Source: an uncultured archaeon
GTDB taxonomy: Archaea; EX4484-52; JAADEF01
Direction: 5' to 3'
Assembly (NCBI GenBank): GCA_964407715.1
Contig: CAYOWP010000014.1
Location: forward strand, 1 to 21,677
Length of the DNA: 21,677 nt
This document shows positions 107-18,514 of the stretch, in pieces. Numbering within the stretch: position 1 is the stretch's first letter; every line of letters begins with the position of its first letter. The notes beneath the pieces are model-generated. The model was not told the DNA's origin. It worked only from the letters and a program-made list of their open reading frames with translations, and ran no database searches. The translations under genes and the position numbers were made by a program.

Positions 107-496
107 GGCATTGTCCAATAATTCTTTATTGTTAAGCGGAAAAATAGCCTTTTAAAATTTGGCTAATGGGAAAATATCGCTACCATAAAAGTTTAAGAGC
201 AGATAATCTCTTTAAAAGAATAGCTGCTTTATTGCCTTTTGAGAAGGTACATCTCTAACCTTTTGTTAAAGATTAGCTGCTCTGATGTGTGTTATTGATG
301 TGGTATGCTTCCTGTTAACCATGTTTTATTAAAAACATAGTTAACGAGAAAATATCTTCATTCACTCATGGAATGCAGCATGTTAATCTTTCGTTAAATG
401 TTAGTTGCTTCATAACCATTATAAAGAGTTAGCCACTATAAATGCTATTTGCGCGTTAAATTTCCGCTTAACAATAGAGAATTATTGGACAAAGCC
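107..496. mobile_element. Non-autonomous foldback/MITE-like element, copy 1
   Basis: 36-bp TIRs at 107-142 (GGCATTGTCCAATAATTCTTTATTGTTAAGCGGAAA) and 461-496, 34/36 complementary. Flanking 9-bp direct repeat GAGATAGAT (98-106) / AAGATAGAT (497-505). Interior built from GGTTAAC...GCTAACC arms. No transposase ORF. Confidence 0.85.
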
Positions 497-7972: not shown

Positions 7973-8612
7973 TGAATTGGTTAACGAGAAGATATCGCTA
8001 TTCAGAAAGTTTTGGAGCAGATAACCTTTCAAAAAGGTTAGCTGCTCTGCTGTGGTTTGCTGATAAAGTATACCTTCTGTTAACAATTTTTTTATTATTG
8101 GTTAACGCGAAGAAATCTCTCTCACCCATGGTTTACAGCATTGTAACCCGCTTCGAAAAAGATTGGCTGCTCTGATATGGCTTGTTGATGAAGTATATCT
8201 CCCCATAACCAATATGAAATTGGTTAACACGAAGAAAATTGCCATTAACGAGCACCTCATAGCATGCTGATCTCTCCTGCGAGTTAGCTGCTAATTAACC
8301 GCTTTATTAGATTAGCTGCTATGATGCAGCTAATTGATAAGGTGTGGTTCCTGTTAACCAGATTTTTTATTTTTAATAAAAATGGTTAACTGGAAAATAT
8401 CACTTTATAGAGCATATTGCAGTAAGTAATTTCAAGAGGCTTAGCATGCTATTACATGCTTTGTTACTATTGATTTCTTTCCGTTAACCCACTCCAGAGC
8501 AGCTAACCATCTTAGAGTGGTTAGGAAGAAGATAACCTTATAGTAGTGGTTATGGTTATAGCATTCTGTAAGCCCTCTAAAAAATAGATATTTTTTCCAG
8601 TTAACCAATTCA
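7973..8612. repeat. Array of alternating inverted ~50-bp arms (about 5 palindromic units), same family as 107-496
   Basis: Repeated TGGTTAACnnGAAGATATC, GAGCAGCTAACC and their complements. Outer ends TGAATTGGTTAAC (7973) / GTTAACCAATTCA (8612) are perfectly inverted. No GGCATTG TIR seen. Confidence 0.85.
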
Positions 8613-11996: not shown

Positions 11997-13616
11997 ATGG
12001 AAAAATCATTAAGAATACTTTTCTTGTTATTTTGTCAATATTTGCTTTTAAATGTTGTGTCAGCAGTTAAAATAAGTAATTGTGCCACTTTAACTGATAA
12101 TGGTTATTATATCTTAGGAAAGGATATATTCTTCACCTCTTCAGAATGTATCAAAATAGAGAATGTATCTTTTATGATATTTGATTGCAATAATCATTCC
12201 TTTTCTTCCTCTTTTTCAGGAACTGCCATTTTAATACATAATTCATCAAATGTTCACATATCCAACTGTAACTTCTATAACTCCACAACCTCTATTAATA
12301 TTACTAATGGCGTTAATATAACCATTAATAAAATATATGATTATAACTCTACATTATCTCTATATTTAGAAGATGTTAACAGCACAAATATATTTGACAT
12401 CTCACTTGAGGAACTAAGTAAGGGAATATATGCAATGAAATCCAATAATCTCAATATATCATATCTCTCTATTAAAGGCTTAGGAAATGAGAATGGAATA
12501 AAGATAGATAACTCCAATGAAATTAATGTCTCTCATATCAATATCTCTTCTTTCTCTTATGGAATTATAGTTAACAACACACAAAACATGAAGATATTTA
12601 ACAATAATATATCCTATAATACCTATGGAATCTGTACAAAAAACTCAAATTATATAACAGTCTATAATAATTTATTCATAAACGATGTGAACTTTCAAGA
12701 TGATGGCTCATCAAACATTTATTTGTCAATCTCCAAGGATTGTACGCAAAAAGCCATAACAAAGGCTCCTTGTATTGGAGGAAATTTTTGGGGAAATTCA
12801 ACAAAAACTGATTTCTCAGACACTTGCAACGATACTAATGGAGATGGTTTTTGTGATAATTCTTATACAATAGGATCACTAACAGACTCTTTACCTTTAT
12901 CGCCCTATATATTCATTAATGTAAAAATTAACCCAACCAATTATGATGTTAATTCAACAGAAGAATTCATAATTAAAGGAAATGCAAAAATAATGCCATA
13001 TCTTGCGCCATATGATGGAGATGTAAGTGTTTATTTATCCTCAAGCGGATTCATAAAAAACATATCTTCAAATAATGGGAACATCTATGATTCATTTATT
13101 CATCCAGCAAATTCATATGATAAGCAAGCATATCTCATAGGCTATAATGCAAGTTATATCTCCAACAATACCTATTACCTCATGCCAAGAATCTTTACTC
13201 TTGGCATAAAAATAAAAGGAGGAGTTCCAGTAGAAAGGAATTCTGTATATAAATATTCTCTTATAATGGTAAATAATCTTTACATCTTTCTTTTGCCGAC
13301 ATTATTTAAATCAGAAACAGCAGAGCTATATACATCTGAGCAAGGTCTAAAGGTGGATCCATCAATGGAAAGCATAATTATGGGAGTATTTCATTCATAT
13401 ACTGATAGTGATGCTTTGCGTAATAGAATATCTCTATTTTATGAGAATGAGTATTGTACCTTCTCTTTTGGAGATATTATAAATAAAAAATGTAATGTCG
13501 TTATTCCTATTTATTCTGAACTTCCATTGATGGCATCATTTAAATCTATAGGAGAAGGAAACTATGTTTTCATTTTGAAAAGATTAAGGGATAGTATTAG
13601 TCTTAGTTTGAAATAA
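11997..13616 (+). CDS. Secreted NosD-like right-handed parallel beta-helix protein
   Basis: Signal peptide; ISNC..L..GYYIL..DI, FDCNNH, repeated GI-x-x-x-NS-N-x-x-I units; GGNFWG...CNDTNGDGFCD cap motif. Confidence 0.85.
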   Translation: MEKSLRILFLLFCQYLLLNVVSAVKISNCATLTDNGYYILGKDIFFTSSECIKIENVSFMIFDCNNHSFSSSFSGTAILIHNSSNVHISNCNFYNSTTSINITNGVNITINKIYDYNSTLSLYLEDVNSTNIFDISLEELSKGIYAMKSNNLNISYLSIKGLGNENGIKIDNSNEINVSHINISSFSYGIIVNNTQNMKIFNNNISYNTYGICTKNSNYITVYNNLFINDVNFQDDGSSNIYLSISKDCTQKAITKAPCIGGNFWGNSTKTDFSDTCNDTNGDGFCDNSYTIGSLTDSLPLSPYIFINVKINPTNYDVNSTEEFIIKGNAKIMPYLAPYDGDVSVYLSSSGFIKNISSNNGNIYDSFIHPANSYDKQAYLIGYNASYISNNTYYLMPRIFTLGIKIKGGVPVERNSVYKYSLIMVNNLYIFLLPTLFKSETAELYTSEQGLKVDPSMESIIMGVFHSYTDSDALRNRISLFYENEYCTFSFGDIINKKCNVVIPIYSELPLMASFKSIGEGNYVFILKRLRDSISLSLK

Positions 13617-13742
13617 TGGGGACGCTGGGATTTGAACCCAGGGCCGTGGGTTTCCCCACTCTACGAATCATTGCATTAGAGCTCATAGCTCCACAGCATA
13701 TATGCTCTGGAGCCCACGATGTTCCCGCTACACCACGTCCCC
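13617..13742 (-). tRNA. tRNA-Trp (CCA) with a 55-nt intron at position 37/38
   Basis: Acceptor stem GGGGACG/CGTCCCC; anticodon arm GTGGG-CTCCAG^A-CCCAC; T-arm CTGGG-TTCAAAT-CCCAG; 71 nt after removing 13652-13706; BHB with CUCC/GGGG helix and AG^A / AA^A bulges. Confidence 0.95.
13652..13706 (-). ncRNA. tRNA-Trp intron with a putative C/D-type guide for Cm34
   Basis: Intron contains TGGAGCT-ATGA, complementary to tRNA positions 30-36; the 5th nt upstream of the ATGA box pairs with C34. Confidence 0.55.
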
Positions 13743-13789
13743 AAATACACACAATATTATTTAAAATCTATTATGTTTTTAAAAGATTT

Positions 13790-14422
13790 ATGGCAAGGAA
13801 CATGCATGTCTCTTCTCCTGAAGATATCATAAGAAAACTCAAAGTATCATATGATAAATTCGCAGAGGATTTTGCGAATACAAGGAAAGATAAGGAATGG
13901 AAAGAAGTCATAGAGTATCTAAAATCTTTACCTTCAAACATCACACTTTTGGATGCAGGATGTGGTTATAATAGATATGGAAAATATATAAATGGAACTC
14001 ATGTATGCATGGATTTTTCAAAAAATCTTATAAAAATTTCCATGGCAGATTATCAGCAAAGCATATATGTTGTAGGAAATATAATAGATTTACCATTTAA
14101 AGATGCTTCCTTTGAGTATTCCATATGCATAGCAACTGTTCATCATTTACCTTCTAAGACACTAAGAAAGAGAGCTATTAATGAGCTTATTAGAGTATCA
14201 AGAAAAGCCATATTTTTAAGTGTCTGGTACAAGCATCAAAAAAAATTTGAAAATCTTCCAAAGGATGTAGATGTAATGTGGAGAAAGAAGTATTTCAGAT
14301 ATTATCATCTCTATGATTTCAAGGAAATTGTTGAAGACATAATTAAGGGCATGCATTATAAAGAGATTTTTTCTTTTGTTGATTATCACAAAAGAAATAT
14401 ATATGTTGAGATTGTAAAATAA
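13790..14422 (+). CDS. Class I SAM-dependent methyltransferase, Trm9/ALKBH8-like
   Basis: YDKFAEDFANTR..W, LLDAGCG, SICIATVHHL..LRKRAINELIRV, SVW, DVDVMW and RYYHLY resemble Trm9 motifs. Start set at ATG 13790 because the upstream ORF extension is antisense to the tRNA. Confidence 0.8.
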   Translation: MARNMHVSSPEDIIRKLKVSYDKFAEDFANTRKDKEWKEVIEYLKSLPSNITLLDAGCGYNRYGKYINGTHVCMDFSKNLIKISMADYQQSIYVVGNIIDLPFKDASFEYSICIATVHHLPSKTLRKRAINELIRVSRKAIFLSVWYKHQKKFENLPKDVDVMWRKKYFRYYHLYDFKEIVEDIIKGMHYKEIFSFVDYHKRNIYVEIVK

Positions 14423-16029: not shown

Positions 16030-16335
16030 TTATTTAATAATCTCAAATTTCTTTGCTCTGATGCATTTATTTGAGAGATTATATTTACCACATTCAGTAC
16101 ATTTAAACCTTAAGAATATCTTTTGAGAGGTTTTTGCACCATATTTAACTCCATGTTCCATCTTTGGATATGGGCTACCTCCATAACCATAATGCAACTT
16201 TTCAAGTCTGTATCTTGATCCTGCCTTTAATGAACTTGTTTTCCTTCTTCCAGATGTTTTTATTCTCTCCACTTTTTGAACTGTGTGCTTATTACATACC
16301 CTACAATATCTTTTTACATATAAAGGAATTTTCAC
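16030..16335 (-). CDS. rpl44e: 50S ribosomal protein L44e (eL42)
   Basis: KIP...RYCRVCNKHT, GYGG and K.FLRFKCTECGK motifs; GTG start at 16335 after an AGGTGG RBS. Confidence 0.95.
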   Translation of the reverse strand: MKIPLYVKRYCRVCNKHTVQKVERIKTSGRRKTSSLKAGSRYRLEKLHYGYGGSPYPKMEHGVKYGAKTSQKIFLRFKCTECGKYNLSNKCIRAKKFEIIK

Positions 16336-16388
16336 ATACACCACCTTTAATTATATGTTTAAAAACCTATTAAATTTAAAAAAGTAAT

Positions 16389-17265
16389 GGTTTCTAAGTG
16401 CTATAATATTGCTCATTAATAATGTGCCTCTCGTTAACCATTTTTTATTCTTTTTTATTATTGGTTAACGGAGAAATATCGCTTTTCAAAAAGCATATCA
16501 CAGAATCGCAACCTCTATTAAGGGTTAGCTGCTTCCTAACTGCTTTCAAGGATTAGGTGCTACAATGTGCTTCATTGAGAGGATCTCTTTTCCTTAACCA
16601 TTTTTGTTTTTAAATGATTTTGTTAACGCGAGGATATCGCTAATACAAAGGTTTGAGAGCAGCTAACCTCTTCAAAAAGGTTAGCTGCTCACAGACCTCT
16701 TCAAAAGGTTAGCTGTTGTGATGTGCTTCATTAAGAGTATCTCTTCTCCTTAACCATTTTTATTTTTAAATGATTTTGTTAACGGGAGGATATCGCTAAT
16801 ACAAATGTTTTGCAGCATGCTAACCTCATTTTTAAGGTTAGCTTCTTCGATGAGATTAGTTGATTATGTATTTCTCTCCTTAACCATTCTTATTTTTAAA
16901 AAATGGTTAACGGGAAGGATCACCCATTCAAACCAGCATTGCAGCAGGTAGCCTCTAGTAAGGTTACTTGCTCTGCTAGGGCTTGTTGATGATGTATATC
17001 TTCCGTTAACAATTCTTATAAAAATTTTTAATTGGAGTGATTAACTAGAAGAAATCGCCATCATCAAGACTTTGTAGCATTATTATCTCTTAGAAATGTT
17101 AGCTGCTGTAAATGTTCTCTGAGAGGATTACTCATCCCGTTAACCATTTTAAATGGTTAACTGGAAGAAATCGCTTTTACAAAGGCTTTTCAGCATGCTA
17201 ACCTAATTGAGTGTTAGCTGTTCTAATATGATTTCTTAGCAGATTGTTCCTTCCGTTAATCATTT
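16389..17265. repeat. Array of alternating inverted ~50-bp arms (about 6 palindromic units, 116-159 bp period)
   Basis: Forward-arm GTTAAC-type cores near 16464, 16622, 16778, 16906, 17040 and 17156, each followed by a GCTAACC..GGTTAGC-type hairpin and a reverse arm. Internal 90-bp direct repeat 16565-16654 / 16721-16810. Confidence 0.9.
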
Positions 17266-17391
17266 TTATTATTTTTATATCAACAGAGGCATCTTAGAGC
17301 ATTTATTCTTTTAAAGATGTTATCATCTTCTATCTGTAAAACTCTATTTTTAATTCATCTTTTTAAATAGAAAAATTTGATAAAAAATTTT

Positions 17392-18165
17392 ATGTATAAG
17401 AGGAGGAAGATCGTAAATTTTTTAGATGAACTCTTGGAAATTAACGAGATAGAGGATGAGTGGTATGATAATGGTCTTATTGTGGAAGGCAGAGATAAAA
17501 TATTTTCGATTTCTTTTGCTATAGATCCAACAAAAGATATTGTAAAAAAGGCAATAGAAAGAGAATATGATATGCTGATTACTCATCATGGAATATTTTA
17601 TAAAAAAGCACCTTTGAGGATCAAGGGCAACATAAAAAAGAAATTAAATATTTTGATAGAAAGCAACATAAATTATTATGTGGCCCATTTACCTTTAGAT
17701 ATTCACGAGGAAATAGGAAATGCGCCAAATATACTTAGAAGATTAAATGCAAAATTTCTCACCACATGGGTAGTAGACGGTATTGAAATAGGAGCAATTG
17801 GTGAACTTCAGAAATCGATATCGTTTAATGAGCTTTTAGAATTTTTCAAAGAAAGAATAACAAACAAGGTAATAGGTATGAATTTTGGTCCTAAAAATGT
17901 CTCATTGATATGTGCCATTTCAACAGATGTAAATGATATCATTTATGATAGCGTTGAGTTTGATGCCATAATTTTGCCAACAATGGATCATATTTCTTAT
18001 CAAGATGCAAAAGAGTATGGAATCAATGTTATATATGCGAATCAATATGATTTAGATAAAATTTGCTTTGAGCTTTTGAAATCCAAAATTTTGAGAGAGT
18101 TTCCAAAGTTGCATATAGATTTCTTGTATGATAAGGATATGATTTCAAAGAATATACTTTTATAA
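17392..18165 (+). CDS. Nif3-like (DUF34) dinuclear-metal-centre protein
   Basis: D...NGLIVEG, AID, DMLITHHGIF and HLPLDIHEEIGNA motifs; ATG 17392 preferred over TTG 17377. Confidence 0.9.
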   Translation: MYKRRKIVNFLDELLEINEIEDEWYDNGLIVEGRDKIFSISFAIDPTKDIVKKAIEREYDMLITHHGIFYKKAPLRIKGNIKKKLNILIESNINYYVAHLPLDIHEEIGNAPNILRRLNAKFLTTWVVDGIEIGAIGELQKSISFNELLEFFKERITNKVIGMNFGPKNVSLICAISTDVNDIIYDSVEFDAIILPTMDHISYQDAKEYGINVIYANQYDLDKICFELLKSKILREFPKLHIDFLYDKDMISKNILL

Positions 18166-18166
18166 T

Positions 18167-18514
18167 GGCATTATCTAATAATTTTTTAATGAGGATTTGT
18201 TAATGAGAAAATTTCTTCTTATAATCGCATTAGCTATCTAAGGTTTGCTGCTCTGATGTGCTTCTTTAAAAGACTGCTTTTTAACAAGGAATTATACCCA
18301 GTCAATGAGTAGCAATAGAGCAGCTAACCTTAAAGATGACATGCTACAAAACCTGTAGTAATAGCGATTTCTTCCCGTTAACAATTTTTATCCATTCAAA
18401 ATAATTGGTTAACGGGAAGCATATCCCTATTCAAAAGGGTTAAACCGCTATAAGTGCCATTTGAGAGGTTATGTTTCCGCTTAACAATGAAGAATTGAAT
18501 TATTGGACAATGCC
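18167..18514. mobile_element. Non-autonomous foldback/MITE-like element, copy 2
   Basis: Left end GGCATTATCTAATAATT; right end 18474-18514 is the complement of GGCATTGTCCAATAATTC(AATTC)TTCATTGTTAAGCGGAAA. Perfect 9-bp direct repeat TTTTATAAT at 18158-18166 and 18515-18523. Same internal arms as copy 1. Confidence 0.87.

Follow-up and report, generated by a model that had tools for sequence, protein, structure and literature searches.

We find that the array at positions 16389–17265 of the window (the whole 21.7-kb stretch of DNA analyzed here, which is the entire contig C14) is probably a tandem array of a species-specific, noncoding, two-arm palindromic repeat that behaves as selfish DNA. 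Within each arm of the repeat, two conserved cores lie 40–42 nt apart. The initial annotation took this constancy as a sign of selection for a protein-binding unit; most simply, it is the inherited shape of one species-specific repeat family, and we see no sign of selection on the spacing.

The source assembly comprises 16 contigs (898.5 kb, ∼31% G+C), with a completeness of 92% and a contamination of 0.26%. Archaeal genes within the window include those for L44e, an Rpb7-type RNA polymerase subunit, and a thermosome, whose nearest homologs (at most 70% identity) are found in Candidatus Aenigmatarchaeota bins; the host genome is Aenigmatarchaeota-like, that of a tiny DPANN archaeon. Contigs C8 (7161–50856) and C9 (262–43957) are 100% identical, in reverse complement, over 43.7 kb. 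This duplication is assembly redundancy and would inflate genome-wide counts unless one contig were dropped; C9 was therefore left out of the counts, which gives a genome of 854,509 bp. A 7743-nt metagenome contig links C1 and C11 at their starts via ∼4.8 kb of 45%–62% G+C without long ORFs, presumably the rRNA operon that is absent from the bin. An Rfam tRNA match in the window at 13617–13742 (− strand; 44.9 bits, 126 nt), absent from the ARAGORN output, probably represents an archaeal tRNA with an intron; ORF 11997–13616 ends directly next to it, and it overlaps the start of ORF 13616–14422.

The array sits in a 1032-bp gap (16345–17376) between two divergent genes. On one side is the gene for ribosomal protein L44e (16030–16344, − strand; Pfam PF00935, E = 1.3e-13), the start of which faces the array, and on the other a gene of the NIF3/DUF34 family (17377–18165, + strand; Pfam PF01784, E = 6e-41), which has arrays on both sides. 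A second array of the same family (7978–8607, + strand; ∼5–6 units), which holds the unit at 7980–8079, lies between an SdpI-family gene and a tRNA-Gly gene. The window also holds a small array at 111–492 (+ strand, ∼3 matches) and another, of mixed orientation, at 18171–18510 (three matches). Both small arrays have a MITE-type terminal repeat motif on either side; the large array at 16389–17265 is without such ends.

The large array opens with a degraded half unit, which six full units follow, and all of them share one orientation. The canonical unit is a two-arm palindrome of ∼109 nt with four 7-nt GGTTARC-type cores that alternate in orientation: A short A/T apical loop joins the left arm (GGTTAAC to GCTAACC) to the right arm (GGTTAGC to GTTAACC). 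Units end in inverted termini of 13–14 nt, 91% paired; these ends are TGGTTAAC and GTTAACCA, with neither a GTAG nor a CGTC tag present. Half unit A (16389–16441, + strand) is a degraded right arm only, which ends in GTTAACC (GTTAAC at 16433) and gives no separate profile match. Unit B (16462–16600, + strand; 139 nt) carries an apical hairpin duplication of ∼28 nt and matches positions 1–110 of the nhmmer model with 52.6 bits (DNA fold z = −1.69). Unit C (16620–16756, + strand; 137 nt) is also apex-duplicated, with split nhmmer matches at 16622–16690 and 16694–16756 (fold z = −5.60). The two are 82% identical over 142 nt at a 156-nt period, which identifies them as a local tandem duplicate. 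Unit D (16776–16886, + strand; 111 nt) is canonical, with cores at 16778, 16819, and 16837 and a degenerate core at 16879; it scores 101.7 bits on the plus strand versus 44.7 on the minus strand (fold z = −1.15). Unit E (16904–17012, + strand; 109 nt) has degenerate apical cores (74.3 bits, fold z = −3.34). In unit F (17038–17146, + strand; 109 nt; 88.8 bits), the left terminal core has decayed to ATTAAC and the hairpin potential is gone (fold z = +1.19), with equal or better folding in 184 of 200 shuffles. Unit G (17154–17262, + strand; 109 nt; 99.8 bits) has cores at 17156, 17197, 17213, and 17255, the last reading GTTAAT (fold z = −1.75). Fold z thus ranges from −5.6 to +1.2 among the six full units. 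Two structural variants recur in the family: One has a 28-nt apex duplication, and the other lacks 15 nt of the left apical half.

An nhmmer profile built from six copies in the window and iterated once detected 448 nonoverlapping loci in the assembly, or 424 without C9. These 424 matches fall into 127 intergenic arrays. The matches cover 37,081 bp (4.3%) and the arrays span 42,342 bp of the 854,509 bp. Only 3154 of 37,033 repeat bases lie within called ORFs, all of them short ORFs inside arrays. With 42.3 kb in arrays versus 70.5 kb of other intergenic DNA, the family makes up ∼37% of the DNA between called genes. DPANN archaea have among the smallest and most gene-dense of cellular genomes, and the family is therefore a useful case of selfish DNA persisting under strong genome reduction. 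Neighboring units share the same orientation in 253 of 315 pairs. Because the conserved middles of the two arms differ, the unit has a definite polarity, and its better strand outscores the other by a median of 38 bits. Arrays occupy 37% of divergent, 9% of tandem, and 11% of convergent gaps. After correction for available space, the excess in divergent gaps is modest (53 seen versus 36.7 expected; P = 0.004, chi-square test, based on crude ORF calls). Slightly more than half of the repeat-bearing gaps (56 of 109) are downstream from at least one gene.

We found the family in this species only. A covariance model search of 40 relatives was negative; one of these belongs to the same genus, three belong to the same family, and 36 to the same order. 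A three-core pattern was likewise without a match in the order's 41 other genomes, although many of the relatives are fragmented bins whose repeats may have failed to assemble. A stricter pattern had no match in 185,579 species genomes or in viral contigs, and its one match in metagenome contigs is from the same species. In the same-genus genome, the L44e ortholog (85% identical) has an 86-bp upstream gap and the NIF3 ortholog (69% identical) a 56-bp upstream gap, and both gaps are repeat-free (best model E = 0.27 and 0.44 for L44e and NIF3, respectively). Since the neighbors of the two genes there differ from those in the window, these are not clean preinsertion sites. Gene order is interrupted at the gap 16345–17376 when compared with the same-genus genome (C45), in which L44e is preceded after 86 bp (gap 1109–1194 of the compared piece) by a codirectional 181-aa ORF and not by NIF3.

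Arrays change by whole units between near-identical strains. In a metagenome contig of the same species, with flanks 99% identical, one array has an extra unit of 130 bp; the same contig shows clustered replacements in distal units, the first 4.5 units being identical bar one base. Three DNA runs yielded no clean structural variant of the array at 16389–17265, their contigs being fragmentary and cross-matched by other copies. A 458-nt contig from a second vent sample matches 16878–17334 except for 11 substitutions within 22 nt (17171–17192, in the left arm of unit G); the cluster resembles a conversion patch but could also be a chimeric assembly across repeat copies. We also compared the nearest relatives of individual arms, a noisy test with arms of 35 nt. 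The nearest relative lies in the same array for the left arm of nine and the right arm of 11 of 168 units, and a single unit is closest for both arms in only nine of 168, so that left and right arms have different closest relatives. Arm identity is 0.64 and 0.62 (left and right) within arrays versus 0.58 and 0.60 between arrays. The similarity therefore does not stem mainly from recent local duplication. The differing nearest relatives indicate that arms assort as modules, as would be expected of exchange between copies with the conserved cores as anchors.

The family has relatives with the hallmarks of mobile DNA. Solo matches to the profile proved to be a 93-nt deletion variant inside a noncoding element of 140–150 bp. 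Its ends are terminal inverted repeats of 17 nt, and direct repeats of ∼9 bp, read at four copies (e.g., C3 63391–63590), flank it; these features identify it as a MITE; we take it to resemble IS5-family or IS903-type derivatives. The interior of the ∼109-nt unit is homologous to the interior of this MITE in the same genome. A 12-mer core of the MITE terminal repeat has 98 exact occurrences, and 149 at up to one mismatch. Of the 81 arrays with one to three matches, 37 carry both terminal repeats. Among the 46 arrays of at least four matches, two have both, six have one, and 38, including the array at 16389–17265, have none; target duplications were not seen at the edges of this or other large arrays. 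Since the large arrays mostly lack transposon ends, we infer, rather than observe, that MITEs seeded them.

We searched the 92%-complete assembly for enzymes that might mobilize the family. The Y1 transposase model (PF01797) had no match, with six control genomes positive, although the unassembled 8% may hide one. Nor was there a match in the assembly to DDE_Tnp_1 (PF01609), DDE_Tnp_1_2 (PF13586), or DDE_Tnp_1_5 (PF13737), and the TnpB zinc ribbon gave two subthreshold matches only. Insertion sequences often fail to assemble in metagenome bins. None of ten array-bracketed genes that we scanned is transposase-like. Six are ordinary: a HAD-kinase, a Hef-like helicase-nuclease, a diphthamide synthase, a winged-helix protein, ParE, and a coiled-coil protein. 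Four ORFs, at C3:20076–21290 (404 aa), C7:10807–12693 (628 aa), C10:259–999 (246 aa), and C4:54518–55312 (264 aa), have no Pfam or NCBIfam match and are the remaining candidates for an element-associated protein. A transposase or recombinase site had been among the options of the initial annotation; the constraint on the cores (see below) would fit propagation by such an enzyme.

The individual core-to-core distances of 40–42 nt reported earlier are correct. Between exact cores, we measure 40 nt from 16622 to 16662; 41 nt from 16778 to 16819, from 17156 to 17197, and from 17098 to 17139; and 42 nt from 8037 to 8079. The pairs 16906–16947, 16837–16879, 16963–17005, 17213–17255, and 7980–8020 have one degenerate core each and were read from the sequence. 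The three-core pattern GGTTAAC-N28-42-TAACC-N5-14-GGTTA has 64 + 70 matches in the genome versus 0 + 1 for the reversed control, which places the geometry far beyond chance. Measured on aligned full-length copies genome-wide, the core distance has a mode of 41 in the left arm, with 118 of 133 (89%) at 40–42 nt, and a mode of 42 in the right arm, with 143 of 171 (84%) at 40–42 nt. The geometry is thus fixed in the sense of a narrow distribution but not strictly, since one or more indels relative to the consensus occur in 97 left arms and 58 right arms (of 163 each). The arm middles do diverge strongly, as had been noted, with 0.28–0.30 substitutions per site relative to the consensus. The loops had been described as freely varying, and this applies to the inter-unit spacers only: 144 of 147 are 7–30 nt long and three are 58–63 nt, with a mode of 20 and 75 at 18–21 nt. 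The apical loop, in contrast, is as constant as the arms, its core-to-core distance having a mode of 17 and measuring 16–18 in 100 of 133 units.

Indels per substitution amount to 128/1636 (0.078) in the left arm, 62/672 (0.092) in the apex, and 63/1637 (0.038) in the right arm, or one indel per 11–26 substitutions across arms and apex; neither of the large structural variants described above (apex duplication of 28 nt, left apical deletion of 15 nt) is included in these counts. A ratio of 0.04–0.09 is in the ordinary range for unconstrained prokaryotic DNA, a benchmark that comes from outside this genome. Arms in which indel events leave the length unchanged are rare (four of 163 left and one of 163 right arms, or five of 326 in all). 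Summed per-site variances never exceed the variance of total arm length, and the length changes of left and right arms are uncorrelated (r = −0.008). The spacers are 91% A+T, and 53% of their bases lie in homopolymer runs of at least 4, versus 8.6% within units; this difference alone predicts more length change in the spacers. The step from constant spacing to selection on spacing is therefore unsupported, given the arm indel ratios of 0.038–0.078, the scarcity of compensation, and a length variance that is not reduced. More generally, constant spacing in a repeat family is evidence of selection only if indels compensate or fall below the substitution-based prediction.

The cores show a different pattern. 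They are 94%–100% identical per site, also in a relaxed set, versus ∼29% of arm sites that are off consensus. The terminal TTAAC positions are 97%–100% identical, and since they are still 93%–98% identical when short-stopping alignments are projected outward, the detection bias is small. Such strongly position-specific conservation rules out plain neutral decay of a single burst; the cores are constrained by something. To this extent the initial annotation was right to reject neutral decay, as neither even indels nor uniform substitution rates describe the family, but its inference of selection on spacing does not follow. We read the core conservation as a constraint on propagation; in-place purifying selection, exerted through a host binding protein, would give the same picture. 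We considered and set aside restriction-type avoidance of GTTAAC outside the repeats, the observed/expected ratio (0.75) being unremarkable among palindromic hexamers.

We envisage the following history for such arrays. Individual loci would have been seeded through transposition of the MITE form or a lost relative thereof. Arrays may then expand and contract via unequal recombination or slippage between units, and gene conversion may shuffle the arms, with the conserved cores as homology anchors. The distance of 40–42 bp would be the length of the founder unit, persisting because arm indels are 13–26 times rarer than substitutions; the arms are poor in homopolymer runs, and the A/T runs of the inter-unit spacers would slip readily. 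The cores would persist because only lineages that keep them are copied, by whatever enzyme mobilizes or recombines them, so that the constraint on the cores would act on propagation and not on host function.

The alternative that survives best, although we consider it unlikely, is that the arrays are domesticated by the host: A protein such as a nucleoid-organizing factor, a topoisomerase, or a segregation factor would bind inverted core pairs about four helical turns apart, and both cores and spacing would be selected. The far better conservation of the four cores than of the arms would be expected of such sites, as would the narrow spacing (40–42 nt in 89% of left and 84% of right arms), and the arrays are somewhat enriched between divergent genes. 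BIMEs, the nearest architectural analog, bind IHF, gyrase, and DNA polymerase I (PMC2817692). The genome encodes a histone-fold protein, from a single gene (C5:34813–34980, − strand; PF00808, 30.1 bits) that is relevant only if the arrays position chromatin proteins. There is also a hint of helical periodicity in the conservation, with a peak at 9.75 bp, but it is not significant, since 7.75% of symmetry-preserving shuffles equal it (P = 0.078), and it vanishes with a uniform background. Against selected host sites stand the lack of compensating indels and the unreduced length variance. The apical distance of 17 and the inter-unit distance of ∼29 put the cores off one common helix face. Units decay in place, unit F lacking both an intact terminal core and the fold; their number varies between strains; and we identified no candidate binding protein. 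None of the order's 41 other genomes, the same genus included, yielded the family. This distribution, the difference in array size between samples, and the tie to MITEs with target-site duplications speak against the domesticated genome-wide binding-site system proposed in the initial annotation.

A more specific form of this idea, which we regard as quite doubtful, is that the cores are in-place sites for an unannotated DPANN protein and the arrays an archaeal counterpart of the BIMEs that bind gyrase and IHF. We keep it in view because the cores are 94%–100% identical against ∼29% of arm sites off consensus, because arrays are enriched in divergent gaps, and because no mobilizing enzyme was found. 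If true, a genome that has very little noncoding DNA would rely on repeat-borne elements for nucleoid organization or for the insulation of divergent promoters.

It is very unlikely that the units act as RNA, either as hairpin ncRNAs or as stabilizing or terminating stem–loops with oligo-T runs as archaeal termination signals. The consensus unit does fold as a long hairpin (−41 kcal/mol), pairing in a 31-copy alignment reaches 91% in the terminal helix and 87% in the apical helix, spacers start with T runs on either strand, and about half of the repeat-bearing gaps (56 of 109) follow a gene. However, the pairing of the terminal and apical helices is high because their sequence is conserved and not through compensation, and the middle helix is only 52.5% paired. 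Across 171 distinct copies, standard pairs are as frequent as column independence predicts at nearly every pair. In the 31-copy alignment, 76.9% of cells are paired versus 78.5% in shuffles, the covariation score lies under that of shuffles in 498 of 500, and no covariation measure exceeds the mean of the shuffles. Compensatory substitutions, suggested earlier as the mark of an RNA or cruciform structure as opposed to the position-specific conservation of a protein site, thus leave no covariation in either set, and it is the position-specific pattern that we see. RNAalifold retains only four base pairs in its consensus, and ViennaRNA alifold on 185 copies retains none, so the consensus-fold structure was imposed for the pair counts. 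G:T versus A:C mismatches (552 versus 444) give no clear RNA strand signal, and both strands of the repeat fold about equally well. An Rfam search of the window at gathering thresholds found only two tRNAs, with no family at the array and no CRISPR family. Arrays are also commonest between divergent genes, where terminators are not needed. There is no structure under selection in the repeat family.

Least probable of all is an autonomous, REP/RAYT-like single-strand hairpin element whose cores and arm length are recognized by an HUH/Y1 enzyme: The architecture is like that of REPINs, with conserved inverted ends and a variable interior of conserved length (PMC3116915), the arms assort independently, and the arrays lack classical terminal repeats and target duplications, but the Y1 search was negative in the 92%-complete assembly with control genomes positive, the scan of ten array-bracketed genes gave nothing transposase-like, and the compensatory changes that PMC3116915 describes as common in REPINs are absent here.

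Selfish tandem amplification of a MITE-related repeat, the reading that we prefer, sets the family beside several known systems. In the literature outside subscription journals, we found no description of the family or of BIME-like arrays in Archaea; the supplementary tables of PMC11602168 may list the genome. The arrays share with CRISPR arrays regularly spaced, partly palindromic repeats in noncoding DNA. Unlike in CRISPR, the spacers are short (7–30 nt), 91% A+T, and mutually alike; the repeats diverge by ∼30%; there are 127 loci; and no Rfam CRISPR family matches.

The likeness to prokaryotic MITEs is closer. The solo relatives are 140–150 bp long and noncoding, with 17-nt terminal inverted repeats, target duplications of ∼9 bp, and no transposase gene inside, and the family is limited to one lineage. 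Unlike MITEs, the array at 16389–17265 has neither such ends nor target duplications and consists of an internal hairpin module amplified in tandem. A MITE census gives top archaeal densities of 146, 105, and 100 MITEs per megabase (PMC11602168). The repeat density here is ∼496 profile matches per megabase, or 4.3%–5% of the genome, a comparison that is rough since the methods differ.

In architecture, the family most resembles REP, BIME, and REPIN sequences. Like these, it is extragenic, has hundreds of copies, and shows alternating motifs at regular distances (here 41, 17, and 42); it also has conserved ends with a variable interior of conserved length, forms tandem clusters, and is species-specific. 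A REP is an imperfect palindrome of ∼20–60 nt with a GTAG/CGTC-type tag at one end, as described in PMC3733652 and PMC2817692; the unit here is ∼109 nt long, with 7-nt GGTTARC cores and no tag. The argument of the initial annotation, from conserved ends and interior length, was also made for REPINs, where it was backed by compensatory changes and a cognate RAYT (PMC3116915). Unlike in REP-RAYT systems, we found no RAYT and no compensatory changes; the host is an archaeon, and arrays are commonest between divergent genes. Architecturally, the family is an archaeal parallel to the BIME/REPIN arrays of bacteria, but without the driving enzyme of the latter. On the simplest account, it joins a BIME/REPIN-like architecture to an origin tied to a MITE, with an arm length that is inherited and cores that are kept for propagation.
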